A DNA stretch of 64,000 nt, from the NCBI RefSeq assembly GCF_041886205.1, contig NZ_CP169029.1; one strand, 5' to 3'. Of this stretch, positions 30,850 to 39,080 are shown in pieces (positions within the stretch are counted from its first letter, which is position 1; each line of letters opens with the position of its first letter). Below the pieces are notes generated by a model, which was not told the origin of the DNA, made no database searches, and saw only the letters and a program-made list of their open reading frames with translations. A program made the translations under genes and the position numbers. This DNA is from Escherichia coli (lineage in GTDB: Bacteria > Pseudomonadota > Gammaproteobacteria > Enterobacterales > Enterobacteriaceae).

Positions 30850-31151
30850 GATTGTCTGCTCCCCTGTCTTGTTATGGGAGCAGTATTTCGTTGCGGGTCA
30901 TTTTGATAAAGGAATTAAAACGTCTTGTTAAGAACAAAGCGTTTTTAGAAAAAAATCGGCAATGGTTAGCGAGTTTGCGCATTTTGCGGTTTTGGCGAAC
31001 GTAGCACGCCGATTCACAAACCAGATAAGATATTCGCGCTCCGGCAAATTATTGCCATTTTGTTACATCCATTCCATATCTGTCGCTGGTTGATTGCCAG
31101 CGCCGCGCCGTGATGCATGATAGGAGAATTAGATAATAAGAGAAGAAAAGT

Positions 31152-31781
31152 ATGATTCGGGTAGTGCTGGTGGATGACCATGTGGTGGTGCGCTCTGGCT
31201 TCGCACAATTACTCTCTCTGGAAGACGATCTGGAGGTCATTGGTCAGTACAGTAGTGCCGCGCAGGCATGGTCGGCATTAATCCGTGATGACGTTAATGT
31301 TGCGGTCATTGATATTGCCATGCCGGACGAAAACGGCCTCAGTTTGCTTAAGCGCCTGCGTGCACAAAAACCGCAATTTCGCGCCATTATTCTTAGCATT
31401 TATGACGCGCCAACCTTTGTGCAAAGCGCGCTGGATGCCGGTGCCAGCGGGTATTTAACCAAACGCTGTGGGCCGGAAGAGTTAGTGCAGGCGGTGCGCT
31501 CGGTCGGGCTGGGCGGGCATTATCTCTGTGCCGATGCAATTCGTGCTTTACGCGGCGGCGGGCAACCTGCCCAGGCGCTGGAAATTCTCACCCCACGAGA
31601 ACGTGAAGTGTTTGATTTACTGGTCAAAGGTGACAGCGTTAAAGAGATCGCCTTTAAACTCGAACTCAGTCATAAAACGGTACATGTGCATCGCGCCAAT
31701 GTGCTGGGAAAACTGAACTGCCATAGCACCATTGAACTGGTGCATTTTGCGCTCGACCACCATCTGCTGGCGGGGCATTAA
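31152..31781 (+). CDS. NarL/FixJ-family response regulator, UhpA-like
   Basis: Receiver domain (VVLVDDH ... IDIAMPD) plus C-terminal LuxR-type HTH (LTPREREVFDLLVKGDSVKEIAFKLELSHKTVHVHRANVLGKL); first gene of a six-gene cluster. Confidence 0.85.
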   Translation: MIRVVLVDDHVVVRSGFAQLLSLEDDLEVIGQYSSAAQAWSALIRDDVNVAVIDIAMPDENGLSLLKRLRAQKPQFRAIILSIYDAPTFVQSALDAGASGYLTKRCGPEELVQAVRSVGLGGHYLCADAIRALRGGGQPAQALEILTPREREVFDLLVKGDSVKEIAFKLELSHKTVHVHRANVLGKLNCHSTIELVHFALDHHLLAGH

Positions 31782-33322
31782 TGTCGCGCAATCTTCGTCA
31801 TTGGGTGGTTTCGTTGTTTATTGTGCTGGCCTGGGGAACCGGCTGGCTGATGCTGTGGACGCTCAGCTTTTATCTGACCAATAACGGTCAACAGGCGGCG
31901 CTGTTTCTGCCGCACGGGGTTTACCTCGCCCTTCTTATTTTACTTGCACGCCGCTACTGGCCTGCGCTGGTGCTCCCCCCTTTGCTGATGATGTTCTGGC
32001 TCCATAGCGAACAGCTATTGAACGGCTATCTCATGCTGGCAACGCCGGTTATTAGCCTGTTTCCTGCCATCCTTGCGCAAAACTTCTGGCACCGTTTTCC
32101 ACTTTACTGGCAGCGTCTGACGTTGCTGTTAGCCACGGTCACAACAGCTTCATTGCTGAATACCGCCCTGCTCTCCCCTTTTATGTCAGGCCCAATAATG
32201 CTGCCGGGTTTGACCTCATTTACCGGAGGCGTATTACTGACGCCGTTTGTCTATCTTATCTTTGAGTTTCTGCGCCAGCAGCATCGCTACCAGCTCCTGG
32301 GACTCGATACGCATAATCCCCCCTTGCGTACCTCTTTAATCATCTGGTGTAGCCTGTTTTTTATTATTGGTATCGGCACTCAGATGGTGCTGTCACCTGA
32401 AATTGAACGTCTGCTGTTGATCGTAGTTTTTCTACCCAATGTGGTGATGGCGTGGAAATTTGGCTGGCAAGGTGGCGTACTCTCCGGGCTTTTGGGCAGC
32501 ATGATGATCACCATCGCCCGCCAGATTGGCGTGGGCTTTAGTAACCTGGTGGAGCTGGAGATTTTCCTCGCGACCCAGGCATTGCTGGGAATTGGCCTGG
32601 GCATTGCCATCAGCCGCCAGCAACATCTGGCGCTAAACCTGCACCATTACCGACAACGGCTGGAGGCCGAGCTGGCAGCGCGGCGGGCATTAGCGGAAAA
32701 GCTGATCCACACCGAGGAGGACACGCGAAAAAACCTGGCGAGGGAGCTGCACGACGAAATCGGTCAAAACATCACCGCCATTCAGATCCAGTCGCAACTG
32801 GTGAAGCGAGCGCGCGATCCGGCGCAAATTCAATCCGCAGCCAGCCAAATCAATGAACTCGCTCGCCGCATTCATCTCTCCACCCGCCAGTTGCTGCGCC
32901 AGCTGCGGCCCCCCGCGCTTGATGAACTGACATTCCGCGAAGCGTTGTTGCATCTGATTAATGAATTTGCCTTTAGTGAACGCGGCATTCATTGCCAGTT
33001 TTCCTATCAACTGACCTCCACACCAGAAAACGAAACGGTGCGCTTTACCTTGTATCGGTTATTGCAGGAGTTGCTCAATAACGTCTGTAAACACGCCGAA
33101 GCCAGCGAAGTGACGATTATCCTGCGCCAGCAGGGAGAGATATTGCATCTGGAGGTCAGCGACAACGGCGTGGGGATCGCTTGCGGGAAAATGGCTGGAT
33201 TTGGCATTCAGGGGATGCGTGAGCGCGTCAGTGCCCTGGGCGGCGACTTAACGCTCGAAAAACAGCACGGCACGCGGGTAATTGTTAACTTGCCCACAAT
33301 TTTGCAACAAATCGCCGGATAA
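31781..33322 (+). CDS. Sensor histidine kinase with polytopic N-terminal membrane domain, UhpB-like
   Basis: About 8 predicted TM helices, then HisKA_3-type H box (LARELHDEIGQNITAI) and HATPase_c motifs (VSDNGVGI, GFGIQGMRERV); start overlaps the regulator stop by 1 nt. Confidence 0.85.
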   Translation: MSRNLRHWVVSLFIVLAWGTGWLMLWTLSFYLTNNGQQAALFLPHGVYLALLILLARRYWPALVLPPLLMMFWLHSEQLLNGYLMLATPVISLFPAILAQNFWHRFPLYWQRLTLLLATVTTASLLNTALLSPFMSGPIMLPGLTSFTGGVLLTPFVYLIFEFLRQQHRYQLLGLDTHNPPLRTSLIIWCSLFFIIGIGTQMVLSPEIERLLLIVVFLPNVVMAWKFGWQGGVLSGLLGSMMITIARQIGVGFSNLVELEIFLATQALLGIGLGIAISRQQHLALNLHHYRQRLEAELAARRALAEKLIHTEEDTRKNLARELHDEIGQNITAIQIQSQLVKRARDPAQIQSAASQINELARRIHLSTRQLLRQLRPPALDELTFREALLHLINEFAFSERGIHCQFSYQLTSTPENETVRFTLYRLLQELLNNVCKHAEASEVTIILRQQGEILHLEVSDNGVGIACGKMAGFGIQGMRERVSALGGDLTLEKQHGTRVIVNLPTILQQIAG

Positions 33323-33394
33323 CCAGGAAAAAATCTTAGGCATCCCGGATTTTCTCTCATCCCCTTTCACTTTCATTTTCATATAGTCAGCAAC

Positions 33395-34711
33395 ATGGAG
33401 ACAACCATGCACGCGCGTTCAGCGAGAGAAATTAATCAATGCTACCGGACATTACGTCCGCGATTGCTGATGTGCATGATTATTGGCTACGCCGCATTTT
33501 ATCTGACGCGAAAAAGCGTGAATTACGTCCTTCCGGCGCTGCAAACCGACCTCGGACTGGATAAAGGCGACATTGGCCTGCTGGGTTCGCTGTTTTATCT
33601 CAGCTACGGATTGTCGAAATTTACCGCCGGACTGTGGCATGACAGCCACGGACAACGCGGTTTTATGGGCGTCGGCTTGTTCACCACCGGATTATTGAAC
33701 GTGGTGTTTGCCTTTGGCGAATCACTTACGCTTTTGCTTGTGGTCTGGACACTGAACGGATTTTTTCAGGGCTGGGGATGGCCACCGTGTGCTCGCTTGC
33801 TGACCCACTGGTACTCACGCAATGAGCGCGGTTTCTGGTGGGGCTGCTGGAATATGTCGATCAACATTGGCGGAGCGATTATTCCGCTAATTAGTGCCTT
33901 TGCCGCCCACTGGTGGGGCTGGCAGGCCGCGATGCTGACACCGGGGATAATCAGCATGGCATTAGGGATCTGGTTAACGCTACAACTCAAAGGCACGCCC
34001 CAGGAAGAGGGATTACCGACAGTTGGTCACTGGCGTCACGATCCGCTGGAGTTACGTCAGGAACAACAAAGTCCGCCGATGGGGCTGTGGCAAATGTTGC
34101 GCACCACCATGCTGCAAAATCCGCTGATCTGGCTACTGGGCGTCTCTTATGTACTGGTTTATGTGATCCGGATTGCGCTTAACGACTGGGGCAATATCTG
34201 GCTGACGGAAAGCCACGGCGTCAACCTGCTCAGCGCCAACGCCACGGTAATGCTGTTTGAAGTGGGCGGCTTACTCGGCGCGTTATTTGCCGGATGGGGA
34301 TCGGATTTGCTGTTTAGCGGGCAACGAGCGCCAATGATTTTGCTGTTCACGCTGGGGTTGATGGTGTCAGTCGCTGCACTGTGGCTGGCACCGGTTCATC
34401 ACTACGCTCTGCTGGCAGTGTGCTTTTTTACCGTAGGCTTTTTCGTCTTTGGTCCACAAATGCTGATTGGACTTGCGGCGGTGGAGTGTGGGCACAAAGC
34501 TGCGGCGGGTTCAATCACCGGATTTCTCGGCCTGTTCGCTTACCTTGGCGCGGCGCTGGCAGGCTGGCCACTGTCGCTGGTCATCGAACGCTACGGCTGG
34601 TCGGGAATGTTCAGTTTACTCTCGGTCGCCGCAGTACTTATGGGTTTACTGCTGATGCCGTTACTGATGGCGGGCATCACCACCACTCACGCTCGAAGGA
34701 TAAAACAATGA
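33395..34711 (+). CDS. MFS organophosphate:phosphate antiporter-family protein, UhpC-like (probable membrane sensor)
   Basis: Strong resemblance to UhpC/UhpT/GlpT family (YLTRKS, FFQGWGWPPCARLLTHWYS, NDWGN, FFVFGPQMLIG); sits in the uhpC position after the regulator and kinase. Confidence 0.85.
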   Translation: METTMHARSAREINQCYRTLRPRLLMCMIIGYAAFYLTRKSVNYVLPALQTDLGLDKGDIGLLGSLFYLSYGLSKFTAGLWHDSHGQRGFMGVGLFTTGLLNVVFAFGESLTLLLVVWTLNGFFQGWGWPPCARLLTHWYSRNERGFWWGCWNMSINIGGAIIPLISAFAAHWWGWQAAMLTPGIISMALGIWLTLQLKGTPQEEGLPTVGHWRHDPLELRQEQQSPPMGLWQMLRTTMLQNPLIWLLGVSYVLVYVIRIALNDWGNIWLTESHGVNLLSANATVMLFEVGGLLGALFAGWGSDLLFSGQRAPMILLFTLGLMVSVAALWLAPVHHYALLAVCFFTVGFFVFGPQMLIGLAAVECGHKAAAGSITGFLGLFAYLGAALAGWPLSLVIERYGWSGMFSLLSVAAVLMGLLLMPLLMAGITTTHARRIKQ

Positions 34712-35739
34712 AAATGACCTTTACCTCTACTCTGATTGCTTCTGCCGTTGCGCTGGCGACTTTAACGGGTGCCGCGCAGGCGAAAGGCCGGCTGGTGGTC
34801 TATTGCAGCGCCACCAATGAAATGTGTGAAGCTGAAACCAAAGCGTTTGGCGAGAAATATGATGTGAAAACTTCATTTATCCGCAACGGTTCCGGAAGCA
34901 CCCTGGCAAAAGTCGATGCTGAAAAGAAAAACCCCCAGGCTGACGTCTGGTATGGCGGCACTTTAGACCCGCAATCGCAGGCCGGCGAGATGGGCCTGCT
35001 ACAGGCGTATAAATCCCCTAACCTTGAGCAGATCATGGAGAAATTCCGCGATCCGGCAAAAGTGAAAGGGAATCTGTCCTCTGCCGTATATGTGGGGATC
35101 CTCGGTTTTGGCGTAAACACCGATCGTCTGAAAGAGAAAGACCTGCCGGTGCCGAAGTGCTGGAAAGATCTCACCAAACCGGAATATAAAGGCGAAATTC
35201 AAATTGCCGATCCGCAAAGTTCCGGTACTGCCTACACCGCGCTGGCTACTTTTGCGCAGCTGTGGGGGGAAGATCAGGCCTTTGATTATCTAAAACAACT
35301 GAACGCCAACGTCTCCCAGTATACCAAATCAGGCATAGCCCCGGCACGTAACGCCGCTCGCGGCGAAACGGCGATTGGTATTGGCTTCCTGCATGACTAC
35401 TCGCTGGAAAAAGAACAGGGTGCGCCGCTGGAGTTGATTTCCCCTTGTGAAGGTACGGGCTATGAAATTGGCGGCGTCAGCATTCTGAAAGGCGCGCGCA
35501 ACCTCGACAATGCCAAACTGTTTGTGGACTGGGTATTATCAAAAGAAGCTCAGGAACTGGCGTGGAAGAAAGGGAAGTCTTATCAGATCCTGACCAATAC
35601 CACCGCCGAAACGTCGCCAAATTCGCTGAAGCTCGACGACCTGAAATTAATCAACTACGACATGGATAAATACGGTTCCACGGATGTTCGTAAGGCATTG
35701 ATTAATAAATGGGTTAGCGAAGTGAAGATGGGTAAGTAA
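34708..35739 (+). CDS. ABC transporter periplasmic substrate-binding protein, AfuA/FbpA-like
   Basis: 343 aa with signal peptide MKMTFTSTLIASAVALATLTGAAQA; ATG overlaps the MFS stop (ATGA); the longer track ORF (from 34381) overlaps the MFS gene and is rejected. Confidence 0.8.
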   Translation: MKMTFTSTLIASAVALATLTGAAQAKGRLVVYCSATNEMCEAETKAFGEKYDVKTSFIRNGSGSTLAKVDAEKKNPQADVWYGGTLDPQSQAGEMGLLQAYKSPNLEQIMEKFRDPAKVKGNLSSAVYVGILGFGVNTDRLKEKDLPVPKCWKDLTKPEYKGEIQIADPQSSGTAYTALATFAQLWGEDQAFDYLKQLNANVSQYTKSGIAPARNAARGETAIGIGFLHDYSLEKEQGAPLELISPCEGTGYEIGGVSILKGARNLDNAKLFVDWVLSKEAQELAWKKGKSYQILTNTTAETSPNSLKLDDLKLINYDMDKYGSTDVRKALINKWVSEVKMGK

Positions 35740-35807
35740 ACCCGCATTAGGCGCATTTGCCGGGTGCAGCACAAATGCCTGCCCCGGCCAACCATACCGG
35801 AACTGCT

Positions 35808-37886
35808 ATGTCACAGACACTTGCACTCCATCCCGTGAAAAAGCGGGATGCGATTTTCCTTTGGGTTTTGCTGGGCTGGCTGGCATTTATCCTGTTGCCG
35901 AGCTGGAGTCTCGATTATGGCCTGCTGGAATCCACGAGTGATGAGATCCTCGAGGCTTATGGCTGGTCGCATTTTAATATCAGCTGGCTGTGGTATTTGT
36001 TACCGAGTCTGTTGCTGGTTCGCCCGTTTCGTGAGGCCACACGTGAACAGCGTAGTCGTCATTATTTTGATGCCGGCTGGGCATTGCTCTGTATGGCGTT
36101 TATCGTCATCAGCGCCACCGTGGCTGGACGCGGTTTAGGCTACGCCGCCATCGTGCTGTTTGTTGAATTAGGCGCGATTATGACGCTGGCCTTAACCCGC
36201 CTCGAATGGCTGGGCGGCGACCGCTTCGTGATCGGCTCGCTGATTGCGATTGTGGCGCTGATTGGCATTTTTATCGTCTGGCCGAGCATCGCCATTTTTA
36301 TCCCGATGTTCACCAACGACGCGGGAGAGTTCGCCCCGCTGGCGTTTATGAACGTGCTCTCGCAGGCACATATTGTGCAGGTGATCGTCAACTCTATCGT
36401 CTTGTCGATAGCGGTGGGTATTGGCTGTACCTTCTTCGGTCTGGTACTGGCGATTTATACCACGCGCATCGCCAAACGCAGCGCCATTATTGGCCGCATC
36501 TTTTCCATTCTGCCCATCGTTACACCACCGTTTGTGGTCGGCTTAGGCGTGACACTCATGATGGGGCGCTCCGGCTATATCACGGAGTTTATGGTGGAGT
36601 GGTTTGGGCTGACCAACACCAACTGGCTGTATGGCTTTACCGGGATCTGGCTGGCGCAGGTTCTGGCATTCACGCCAATGGCTTTTATGATCCTCGACGG
36701 GGCCATTAAAACCATTCATCCCTCGCTGGAAGAGGCCTCCTACACCCTGCGCGCCAGCCGCTGGCAAACCTTTAACGGCGTGTTTGTGCCGTTGCTAAAG
36801 CCCGCGCTCGCCAATGCCTTTTTAATCGTCGTGGTACAGTCACTGGCTGATTTCAGTAACCCGCTGGTGCTTGGCGGCAACTTCGACGTACTGGCGACGC
36901 AAATTTACTTCTACATTACCGGCTCGCAGCTGGATTATCAGGCCGCCAGCACGCTTGGTGCTTTCCTGCTGCTGTTCTCGCTGCTGGTGTTCTGCGTCCA
37001 GTATATGTGGATTGGTAAACGCTCTTACGTCACGGTTTCCGGCAAATCCTACCGTGGCGACGTCCAGCCACTACCGGTCACCCTGGTGTGGAGCGTGGTC
37101 GCCATACTTGCGGTATGGATTGCCTTTAACGCCCTGCTCTACGGCAGCATTTTCTACGGCAGCTTCACGGTGAACTGGGGCGTTGACTACACCCTGACGC
37201 TGGATAACTTTATCAAGTTATTTGGTCAGGGGATGAGCGACGGCGCGTGGCCTTCACTGTTGGATACCCTGCTCTACGCCGGGATTGCAGCCCCCATTAC
37301 CGCTATCTTTGGCCTGCTCATCGCCTGGGTGGTGGTGCGTCAACAATTCAAAGGCAAAAAGACCATCGAGTTCACCACCATGCTGTGCTTTGCCGTACCG
37401 GGTACGGTGGCGGGCGTCTCGTATATTCTCGCCTTTAACAGCGCTCCGGTTTATCTCACCGGAACGGCGGCAATTGTGATTATCTCGATGGTGATGCGTA
37501 ACGTTCCGGTGGGCATTCGTGCCGGGATTGCAGGTCTGGGGCAGATCGACAAATCGCTGGATGAAGCCTCACTCAGCCTGCGTGCGGGTTCCCTGCGAAC
37601 CATAACCCACATTTTACTGCCGCTGCTGCGCCCGGCCATTCTCTCGGCCCTGATCTACAGCTTTGTGCGGGCCATCACGACGGTCAGCGCCATCGTCTTT
37701 CTCGTCACGCCGGACACCCGCGTGGCAACAGCCTACATTCTTAACCGCGTTGAAGACGGCGAATATGGCGTAGCTATCGCCTATGGTTCGATTCTGATCG
37801 TGGTGATGCTGGCGATTATTTTCCTCTTTGACTGGCTGATCGGAGAAGCACGTATCTCCCGTTCTAAAGCCAAAAACCAGGCGTAA
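35808..37886 (+). CDS. ABC transporter permease with two fused transmembrane domains, AfuB/FbpB-like
   Basis: About 690 aa with two permease-type halves typical of FbpB/ThiP-type importers; start chosen at [10 protein letters not shown] (alternative upstream start at 35757). Confidence 0.8.
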
Positions 37887-38944
37887 TGGAGCGCACTATG
37901 AGTCAGAAAAATTTTGTGGAACTGCGCAACGTCACTAAACGATTCGGCAGTAATACGGTTATCGACAATATCAATCTCACCATTCCACAAGGGCAAATGG
38001 TGACGCTGCTCGGCCCTTCCGGCTGTGGCAAAACCACCATTCTGCGTCTGGTTGCCGGGCTGGAAAAACCGAGCGAAGGGCAAATTTTTATTGATGGCGA
38101 AGATGTCACGCATCGTTCCATTCAACAGCGCGATATCTGCATGGTGTTTCAGTCATACGCTCTGTTCCCGCATATGTCGCTGGGTGAAAACGTTGGCTAC
38201 GGGCTGAAGATGCTTGGCGTGTCGCGTAGCGAAGTGAAACAGCGGGTGAAGGAGGCGCTGGCAATGGTGGATCTGGAAGGCTTCGAGGACCGCTATGTCG
38301 ATCAGATTTCCGGTGGTCAGCAACAGCGTGTGGCGCTGGCCCGCGCGTTGATCCTCAAACCGAAGGTACTGCTGTTTGATGAGCCGTTAAGTAACCTCGA
38401 TGCCAACCTGCGCCGCAGTATGCGCGATAAGATCCGCGAGCTGCAAAAGCAGTTTAATATCACGTCGCTCTACGTCACTCACGATCAAAGTGAAGCTTTC
38501 GCGGTGTCCGACACCGTACTGGTGATGAATAAAGGTCACATCATGCAGATTGGTTCACCGCAAGATCTCTATCGTCAGCCCGCCTCCCGCTTTATGGCAA
38601 GTTTTATGGGCGACGCCAACCTGTTCCCGGCGAACTTTAGCGAAGAGGATGTCGATATCTACGGTTATCGCCTGCCGCGCGCGGCGCATTTCCCGGCGCA
38701 AGGTAGCGGCACCGTCGGCGTTCGCCCGGAAGCCATCACCTTAAGCAATCACGGCGAAGAGAGTCAGCGTTGTGTTATTCGCCATGTCGCCTACATGGGG
38801 CCGCAGTACGAAGTGACCGTAGAGTGGCATGGACAGGAGATTTTATTACAAGTAAACGCCACCCGTTTACAGCCCGATATTGGTGAGCACTATTACCTCG
38901 AAATCCATCCTTACGGGATGTTTGTTTTAGCGGATGCGGCATAA
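37886..38944 (+). CDS. ABC transporter ATP-binding protein, AfuC/FbpC/PotA-like
   Basis: Walker [11 protein letters not shown]-loop, signature [14 protein letters not shown], Walker [13 protein letters not shown]-terminal TOBE-like domain; start ambiguous between 37886 and 37898. Confidence 0.85.
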
Positions 38945-39026
38945 AAATAGCACATAAACGGTCCCCACCTGTCTTGAGGGACCGTTCACCTGGTTAGGCT
39001 TCGGACAACAATTATTCTCCAGTGTT

Positions 39027-39080
39027 ATATACTATAGGGGGGTATGCATTGACATATAGCATACCCCCCTATAGTATATT
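39027..39080 (+). promoter_or_regulatory. Candidate FrmR operator: inverted repeat with G6/C6 tracts
   Basis: ATATACTATAGGGGGGTATGC ... GCATACCCCCCTATAGTATAT, a near-perfect palindrome 25-75 bp upstream of frmR; the G/C-tract-flanked AT-rich dyad is the operator style of RcnR/FrmR-family repressors. Confidence 0.7.

Follow-up and report, generated by a model that had tools for sequence, protein, structure and literature searches.

Positions 31152–38944 of the DNA analyzed here, a 64,000-nt stretch of Escherichia coli sequence (NCBI RefSeq assembly GCF_041886205.1, contig NZ_CP169029.1; hereafter the window), constitute the O-island 20 (OI-20) locus of enterohaemorrhagic E. coli (EHEC) O157:H7. 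The locus comprises fusR, fusK, z0461 (UhpC-like), afuA, afuB and afuC, which encode a response regulator, a histidine kinase, a major facilitator superfamily (MFS) protein and an ATP-binding cassette (ABC) importer. An earlier note on this DNA took overlapping stop and start codons as a sign that sensor and transporter are co-expressed stoichiometrically. Our analyses instead suggest two nested transcription units: a basal fusRK unit and a z0461-afuABC unit that would be induced via FusR, from a predicted promoter in the gap between fusK and z0461 that resembles the E. coli K-12 uhpT promoter. We put the probability of this organization at roughly 0.65 on the strength of sequence conservation and geometry.

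A promoter of the uhpT type is predicted between fusK and z0461

The predicted promoter, which we call P2, would take up the final 40 nt of fusK plus the 84-nt gap that follows, with a three-part uhpT-type architecture and no –35 box. Its elements are as follows.

33283..33298, plus strand: CRP-like site TGTTAACTTGCCCACA, in the last codons of fusK, 40 nt upstream of the dyad
33323..33339, plus strand: 17-bp dyad CCAGGAAAAAATCTTAG, the predicted FusR site; family consensus CYAGGAA-N3-TTCCTRG
33355..33362, plus strand: invariant block TCTCATCC, all eight columns at least 0.9 conserved; its CTCA is at about –38, 26 nt ahead of the –10 box
33382..33387, plus strand: predicted –10 box TATAGT of P2; the –35 place reads ATCCCC, with no recognizable box; predicted start near 33394
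33398–33401, plus strand: GGAG ribosome-binding site of z0461, a conserved block of the gap

Related loci were collected by searching with the MFS protein, one genome per species, which yielded 80 Enterobacterales loci at 68–98% identity. Four more, from the Vibrio cholerae/metoecus group, Photobacterium, Yersinia enterocolitica and Gallibacterium, were reached via AfuA homologues. The gap alignment contains 75 distinct sequences, between which the flanking coding sequence diverges; nonetheless 40% of gap columns are at least 0.9 conserved, versus 11% of third-codon positions in the neighboring genes. The conserved P2 blocks recur in approximately 80 Enterobacterales, Vibrio, Photobacterium and Yersinia loci, and every clade from Vibrio to E. 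coli has the same layout of dyad, 15 nt, invariant block, 19 nt and –10 box. The –10 box itself appears as TATAGT, TACAGT, TACACT, TACTCT or TAGGAT; its T1, A2 and T6 are invariant while its middle varies, a pattern typical of –10 boxes.

The dyad is confined to this position. Allowing up to two mismatches, we observed it in 79 kinase–MFS gaps and one further time on a truncated contig (L048), where it precedes the MFS gene. The remaining 1.16 Mb of fetched sequence contains four chance matches, and neither the region upstream of fusR nor that before afuA holds any of them. The two halves of the dyad mirror each other perfectly in Pectobacterium, Rahnella, Buttiauxella, Vibrio and Photobacterium. 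The CRP-like site matches TGTGA-N6-TCACA at 8 of 10 positions (9 of 10 in Yersinia) and in 78 of 83 loci stands at a constant distance from the dyad.

A consensus promoter scan flagged only the fusR promoter and nothing in the gap, though such a scan is little informative for activator-dependent promoters that lack a –35 box. The promoter and terminator scan found no terminator-like site in the kinase–MFS gap, and the predicted fold of the gap RNA is no better than that of shuffled sequence (z = –0.13). The earlier note had allowed that the gap could hold an internal promoter, and the conserved uhpT-like elements strongly support that suggestion.

We observed a second inverted repeat in the gap, GAAAAAATC/GATTTTCTC (33327–33335 and 33348–33356; 9 nt, 89% complementary), which shares sequence with both the dyad and the TCTCATCC block. 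The Escherichia/Citrobacter/Klebsiella group, whose dyads have a degenerate right half, has this repeat; Pectobacterium and Vibrio lack it. It may represent an alternative half-site arrangement.

P2 reproduces the geometry of the K-12 uhpT promoter

Upstream of uhpT, UhpA occupies a strong and a weak site next to each other, and CRP has one site farther upstream (PMC4790336; PMC5352689). The corresponding P2 elements lie at nearly the same distances. In both promoters the center of the CRP-like site is 91.5 nt before the –10 box (–103.5 in P2 if the start is at 33394) and CTCA is 26 nt before it. The dyad is centered 52 nt before the –10 box in uhpT (CTAAGAAATTTTCCAGG) and 51 nt before it in P2 (about –63). 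The P2 dyad is identical to CTAAGAAATTTTCCAGG at 9–13 of 17 positions, depending on the clade, and the TCTCATCC block occupies the position of the promoter-proximal (weak) UhpA region of uhpT. The uhpT repeat CCAGG-N5-CCTGG was considered as the counterpart of the dyad and set aside for its misfit in spacing and position; the overlapping 17-mer CTAAGAAATTTTCCAGG corresponds better.

For uhpT itself, the Merkel/Kadner papers reportedly place the dyad and CRP site at –64 and –103.5. Placing the start 7 nt after the –10 box (TACAAT in uhpT) gives –103.5 and –64 for uhpT, and the same rule gives –103.5 and –63 for P2. A missing –35 box is typical of activator-dependent promoters. P2 thus qualifies as a uhpT-type promoter by sequence and geometry alone, with its elements conserved in more than 80 loci.

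The two systems differ in where the regulated promoter lies. In the window it is predicted in the gap between kinase and co-sensor genes (84 nt); in K-12 it is in the gap between co-sensor and transporter genes (137 nt), and uhpB and uhpC are 9 nt apart. Because P2 lies upstream of z0461, the co-sensor gene falls on the induced side here. The earlier note had contrasted a joint induction of sensor and transporter with the canonical uhp arrangement. That contrast shrinks to a displacement: a uhpT-type promoter is predicted here too, one gene further upstream, and only the UhpC-like co-sensor would join the transporter, not the kinase or regulator.

Two other roles for the dyad must be weighed. 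The palindrome might act in RNA, forming a hairpin at which the fusRK transcript is ended or processed. Several clades have it in perfect 7-3-7 form, and its halves co-vary (CCAGG...CCTGG versus CTAGG...CCTAG). However, no T-run follows it, and its palindromy is broken in the Escherichia/Citrobacter/Klebsiella/Enterobacter group, yet both halves are invariant there. An RNA hairpin would also have no need of the fixed distance to a –10 box and a CRP-like site. We rejected the hairpin or terminator reading on the fold of the gap RNA noted above, and consider it highly improbable.

Alternatively, the dyad could be an operator at which phosphorylated FusR represses z0461 (and afuABC) on fucose, with P2 being constitutive or CRP-dependent. 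This agrees with secondary accounts of Pacheco et al. 2012, according to which FusKR represses z0461 and the fuc genes, and FusR binds ler and represses it (PMC6199705; PMC11644481). The geometry argues otherwise. The dyad, with its center at about –63 relative to the predicted start, falls outside the core promoter, and that core promoter lacks the –35 box, as activator-dependent promoters typically do. The arrangement copies that of uhpT, where UhpA is an obligate activator, and it is found in many genera, most of which are not known as attaching-and-effacing pathogens. Repression through the dyad therefore seems unlikely to us.

The locus encodes a Uhp-like sensor and a sugar-phosphate importer

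The six genes of the locus are as follows.

31152..31781, plus strand: fusR (Z0463), NarL/UhpA-type response regulator with Response_reg and GerE domains
31781..33322, plus strand: fusK (Z0462), UhpB-like MASE1 histidine kinase with MASE1, HisKA_3 and HATPase_c domains
33407..34711, plus strand: z0461, UhpC-family MFS protein; the first ATG of the open reading frame (ORF) is at 33395 and the conserved start at 33407, preceded by GGAG at 33398–33401
34708..35739, plus strand: afuA, periplasmic sugar-phosphate-binding protein
35808..37886, plus strand: afuB, fused double-domain ABC permease with two BPD_transp_1 stretches; the PGAP start is equivalent to 35808
37898..38944, plus strand: afuC, ABC ATPase with ABC_tran and TOBE_2 domains; the ORF opens at 37886 and the conserved start is 37898, preceded by GGAG at 37888–37891

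The sensor proteins are homologous to K-12 UhpABC throughout. FusR combines a PF00072 receiver with a PF00196 GerE/LuxR helix-turn-helix (HTH) domain, the composition of the NarL/FixJ class. Its best NCBIfam match is UhpA, at 193 bits against an equivalog cut-off of 258, so FusR is UhpA-like by sequence, not UhpA. It shares 48% identity with K-12 UhpA, including an identical KTVHVHRAN stretch in the HTH region. FusK likewise matches UhpB best (376 bits versus a cut-off of 408); it shares the UhpB architecture, MASE1 included, at 34% identity. In scoring below the UhpA and UhpB cut-offs, FusR and FusK differ from the K-12 proteins on their namesake models. Z0461, at 53% identity to K-12 UhpC, scores 587 bits on the NCBIfam UhpC subfamily model, above its cut-off of 564. 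Other models score it lower: 214 bits for UhpT (cut-off 497), 293 for GlpT and 393 for PgtP (TIGR00881). Z0461 is annotated in the literature as a fucose-related transporter (PMC6199705). The UhpC subfamily is one of glucose-6-phosphate receptors, of which a member would signal external glucose-6-phosphate to its partner kinase.

The transporter is an ABC importer in the window locus and the UhpT antiporter in K-12. AfuABC has the expected importer layout: a binding protein, a permease with two fused domains and a TOBE-containing ATPase. AfuA matches the solved Actinobacillus pleuropneumoniae structures of AfuA with sugar phosphate, 4R72–4R75 (E = 2e-169). It is also closely related to 8X1A (E = 2e-173), which shares 99% identity with the V. 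metoecus/cholerae-group binding protein collected here. Aligned to 4R72, AfuA keeps the FLHDY and GYE motifs, and window residues H229, D230 and E253 correspond to the sugar-coordinating His-Asp and Glu. These are H205, D206 and E229 in A. pleuropneumoniae numbering (PMC4546632), the offset to the window residues being taken from the alignment. AfuC scores 699 bits on NCBIfam PRK11432 (FbpC model), with the alignment beginning at ORF residue 5. AfuABC is a proven importer of the 6-phosphates of glucose and fructose and of sedoheptulose-7-phosphate and adjoins FusKR in EHEC (OI-20) and Citrobacter rodentium (PMC4546632). In A. pleuropneumoniae, the AfuABC binding protein is followed by the same permease and ATPase as in the window locus (PMC4546632). 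The Pasteurellaceae example in our collection (Gallibacterium, L087) has afuABC without Uhp-like sensor genes, unlike the window locus.

The cassette is widespread

The window comes from a non-O157 strain, and its locus has the gene content and chromosomal site of EHEC O157:H7 OI-20 (Z0458–Z0463). It is 97.7% identical to that of EDL933 (O157:H7) over 3.56 kb; FusR, Z0461 and AfuA are 100% identical at the protein level and FusK 97%. The flanks are also alike, with tauDCBA upstream, frmR-frmA downstream and the island between tauA and frmR. Near-identical sequence, the same order of six genes and the tauA/frmR site together identify the locus as OI-20. Several complete E. coli genomes match an 8.1-kb segment around it at 100% identity, and the closest genomes are frog, bear, pig, pigeon and human isolates. 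The full locus is found in 518–519 of 5426 complete E. coli genomes, including O145:H28 as well as animal and commensal isolates.

Beyond E. coli, the cassette is present in at least 80 other Enterobacterales species and in Vibrionaceae, and the six-gene order is constant in every locus collected except that of Gallibacterium, where afuABC stands alone. A review describes FusKR in EHEC O157:H7 and holds that similar systems gained by lateral transfer are, in general, confined to a few hypervirulent serotypes (PMC11644481). The distribution that we observe, within E. coli and beyond, contradicts that narrow range.

A few loci appear degraded. In Citrobacter koseri (L050) the matches to fusR, fusK, afuA, afuB and afuC are all partial and the MFS–afuA interval is 951 nt, and in three other loci (L009, L042 and L058) fusK or afuB matches are truncated. 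These could be pseudogenes or assembly errors.

The V. cholerae system has the same six-gene order (VCA0682–VCA0687), and Moisi et al. 2013 reportedly found it to be induced by hexose-6-phosphate via the UhpA homologue VCA0682. The UhpC-like gene of Vibrio is preceded by a perfect dyad, CTAGGAAATATTCCTAG, spaced from a –10-like TAGGAT as in the window locus. This dyad falls inside the final codons of the kinase gene, and the MFS–afuA overlap of the window locus is replaced by a 112-nt spacer. The V. cholerae transporter has been reported as a system for the uptake of hexose-6-phosphate (PMC4101255). Within the 112-nt spacer of the V. cholerae/metoecus-group locus (L083, 7889–8000), GACCTGA-N9-GACCTGA forms a direct repeat immediately before the ribosome-binding site of afuA. 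This might represent a second, Vibrio-specific regulatory site relevant to the reported VCA0685–0687 operon.

Conservation favors the gap over the gene overlaps

Of the overlaps on which the earlier note relied, two are genuine. The fusR/fusK junction reads TAATG (31779–31783), the stop codon TAA at 31779–31781 and the fusK ATG having A31781 in common, and the z0461/afuA junction reads ATGA (34708–34711), in which the TGA stop is overlapped by the afuA ATG; both were correctly described. The third, between the permease stop and an ATPase ATG at 37886, did not survive comparison. That ATG exists (TAATGG), but the conserved afuC start is 37898, leaving an 11-nt spacer. Across 77 related loci it is the downstream ATG that is conserved as the start, 4–56 nt past the afuB stop, and an overlap was never seen; the junction reads TAACGGAG or TAACACTATG. 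The PGAP start of the EDL933 afuC orthologue is likewise the equivalent of 37898. Given these junctions, the PGAP start and the point at which the FbpC alignment begins, we regard the ATG at 37886 as a by-product of TAATGGAG, a stop codon followed by the Shine-Dalgarno sequence GGAG.

The start of z0461 needs a similar correction. The ATG at 33395 lies inside the GGAG-containing ribosome-binding site and is found in E. coli only; other genera have AAACGGAG. The MFS protein probably starts 12 nt further down, at the conserved, PGAP-annotated 33407. The kinase–MFS gap is therefore 84 nt rather than the ~70 bp (33323–33394) given in the earlier note, which was right that a non-coding stretch begins at 33323. 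Both in-frame ATGs, 33395 (ACATGGAG) and 37886 (TAATGGAG), are in Shine-Dalgarno regions and each adds four codons to the mechanical ORF. They are missing from most relatives, and spurious junction geometries result.

The junctions differ in how well they are kept. Regulator and kinase genes overlap by 1 nt in 61 of 76 loci, the rest being 0–3 nt apart save for one 4-nt overlap. Kinase and MFS genes are separated by a gap in every locus, of 72–101 nt in 77 of 79. MFS and afuA genes overlap in 39 of 81 loci; elsewhere they are 4–15 nt apart (27 loci), 20–60 nt apart (10 loci), 138–231 nt apart (some Pectobacterium and one other locus) or 101–138 nt apart (Yersinia, Vibrio and Photobacterium). 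The afuA–afuB spacer is at least 53 nt in all 81 loci (68 nt in the window). Because the kinase–MFS gap is kept everywhere while the z0461/afuA junction varies, the feature under selection is the gap and not the overlaps.

One- and four-base overlaps are the commonest junctions of bacterial operons. The neighboring tauABCD operon has two of the ATGA type, and K-12 uhpA/uhpB shares the 1-nt overlap (TGATG). The overlaps in the window are thus routine, not beyond chance and of little consequence on their own; at most, the two genuine ones would permit local translational coupling of neighboring genes.

Downstream of afuA we identified a further feature of the transporter genes.

35759..35788, plus strand: GC-rich hairpin between afuA and afuB, GCCGGGTGCAGCACAAATGCCTGCCCCGGC (centroid structure)

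A hairpin follows afuA in 11 of 11 taxa folded, with sequences unrelated between clades and z-scores from –1.1 (the window alone) down to –4.5. In Atlantibacter, Enterobacillus and Cedecea/Buttiauxella it is followed by a T-run. Hairpins after the binding-protein gene are a usual device for unequal expression in ABC operons. The persistence of this one despite sequence turnover suggests such a role, and by analogy it probably raises AfuA expression over that of the membrane components. In several Citrobacter loci (L010, L013, L066 and L009) the afuA–afuB spacer is 139 nt instead of ~68 nt, which suggests a duplicated or inserted element resembling a repetitive extragenic palindromic (REP) hairpin.

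The fusR leader contains a predicted promoter without the dyad

Two elements were identified upstream of fusR.

31094..31121, plus strand: P1, predicted sigma-70-type promoter of fusR-fusK, with –35 box TTGCCA (31094–31099), a 16-nt spacer and –10 box CATGAT (31116–31121)
31061..31078, plus strand: conserved element TGTTACATCCATTCCATA (TGTTAC...CAT), 30–50 nt upstream of the fusR –35 box; also at the equivalent position in loci L003–L082

Among 63 fusR leaders aligned across genera, conservation is limited to the last ~105 nt ahead of the ATG, and the sequences beyond that point diverge, which fits a left end of the conserved cassette lying there. P1 is the sole promoter-like match on the plus strand upstream of fusR, and its hexamers and spacing are conserved across genera (ATTGCCA ... 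GCATcATA). The TGTTACATCCATTCCATA element is weakly CRP-like (7–8 of 10 positions), but it is centered near –59.5, which is nonstandard for CRP; its form in Enterobacter and Leclercia is a direct repeat, GTTACAT-N2-GTTACAT. QseB and QseF have been reported as repressors of fusKR (PMC5120142).

The 63 leaders contain neither the dyad nor any other inverted repeat conserved across genera. The dyad was also sought in the MFS–afuA spacers of Pectobacterium, Yersinia and Vibrio and in the rest of the 64-kb window, and was found in none of them. Its absence leaves no support for autoregulation via the dyad or for a second regulated promoter before afuA. The earlier note had envisaged autoregulation by FusR from its leader; the ~105 conserved nucleotides hold a sigma-70-like promoter and no copy of the gap dyad. 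Of the two gaps in which that note would have looked for regulator-type sites, only the one between kinase and MFS genes has one. The note had also said that its reading would fall to a strong terminator plus an independent promoter between kinase and MFS genes, with no regulator-type site in either gap. The gap does contain an independent promoter-like element, but no terminator, and one of the two gaps has a regulator-type site.

One transcription unit or two

We propose the following organization. P1 would drive basal expression of fusR and fusK, whose 1-nt overlap would be inherited from the uhpA/uhpB layout. Some read-through from P1 past fusK would supply a basal level of co-sensor, which is plausible because the genes are on one strand, the gap has no terminator and its RNA is unstructured. 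Phosphorylated FusR bound at the dyad, aided by CRP, would then activate P2 to drive z0461-afuA-afuB-afuC. The UhpC-like co-sensor would thereby be induced along with the importer, in positive feedback, and the kinase and regulator would not. Within the induced unit, the afuA hairpin would set AfuA above the membrane components. Gene identities, junctions, conservation and geometry are observed here, and promoter activities, binding of FusR to the dyad and the inducing signal are inferences; by homology with UhpABC and the V. cholerae system, the expected inducer would be an external hexose phosphate.

A competing arrangement is a single operon of all six genes, read from the fusR leader under autoregulation by FusR, with all proteins induced together and kept in fixed proportions by translational coupling. 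The shared strand, the terminator-free and unstructured gap and the two genuine overlaps are all compatible with it. However, the leader lacks the dyad and any other inverted repeat conserved across genera, whereas the 84-nt gap contains a uhpT-like promoter conserved from Vibrio to E. coli. Fixed proportions are also hard to reconcile with the junctions: the z0461/afuA overlap is missing in 42 of 81 loci, the afuB/afuC overlap is not real, and a hairpin follows afuA in every clade sampled. These same observations undercut the stoichiometric co-expression put forward in the earlier note. DESeq2 baseMean values (fusR 131.6, fusK 100.9, z0461 178.5 and afuB 154.0) are uneven per gene length, though this is a very rough measure. 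Taken together, a single operon appears quite unlikely.

Several observations weigh against the organization with two nested units. P1, P2 and the FusR site are predictions, and the predicted 5' leader of the P2 transcript is only ~13 nt. The match to the dyad is not significant within the window alone (33 of 100 shuffles did as well), and its right half is degenerate in E. coli, Citrobacter and Klebsiella (TCTTAG, not TCCTAG); the weight of the dyad comes from its positional conservation across loci rather than from the match in the window. The CRP-like site encodes a conserved V-N-L-P-T peptide, and its conservation is partly a coding constraint. Even so, its six third-codon positions are 0.89–1.0 conserved against a background mean of 0.63, with only 4.5% of third positions at 0.95 or above, and these frozen synonymous positions point to selection on the DNA of the site beyond the peptide. 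The –64 and –103.5 positions reported for uhpT are reproduced only by placing the start 7 nt after TACAAT. [quoted passage not shown] RNA-seq of EDL933 showed fusR, fusK, z0461 and afuB – all the locus genes measured – rising in bovine digestive contents (PMC6199705), which a single unit would fit too; the joint rise in that RNA-seq supplement cannot separate one promoter from two.

Downstream flank

The end of the locus carries one further feature.

38957..38986, plus strand: hairpin after afuC, without a T-run; z = –1.4, not significant alone

This hairpin is a possible weak end of the transcription unit. No spike in synonymous-site conservation, as an embedded promoter might leave, was seen at the 3' end of z0461 in this clade. 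Beyond the locus, just upstream of frmR, a perfect 21-nt inverted repeat, ATATACTATAGGGGGGTATGC / GCATACCCCCCTATAGTATAT (39027–39079), surrounds a strong promoter-like site, TTGACA-17-TAGTAT (39049–39077). We presume this to be the formaldehyde operon's promoter with its FrmR operator.

Implications for FusKR

The island itself is already known. What may be new is the predicted uhpT-type promoter, one gene upstream of its canonical place and conserved from Vibrio to E. coli. In the sources consulted on OI-20, we found no description of such a promoter before z0461. In that literature FusKR figures as a fucose sensor and a repressor of LEE genes and z0461, with AfuABC handled as a separate topic; a uhpT-type promoter before z0461 sits awkwardly with this description.

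FusK, FusR and Z0461 could be an ordinary Uhp-type sensor of external hexose phosphate, with P2 as its ancestral and primary target and the fucose/LEE role in EHEC as a lineage-specific overlay or a matter for re-examination. We hold the evidence for this to be evenly balanced. The case for an overlay is that the same cassette and promoter occur across Enterobacterales and Vibrionaceae, most of which are not known as attaching-and-effacing pathogens.

The locus contributes to gut colonization in C. rodentium, and FusKR is cited as a fucose-sensing virulence switch in EHEC. If FusR does activate a uhpT-like promoter, the natural output of FusKR would be induction of a sugar-phosphate importer together with its own co-sensor. 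This would provide a simple, testable link between the sensor and its neighboring genes, and would make glucose-6-phosphate worth weighing beside fucose as the signal.

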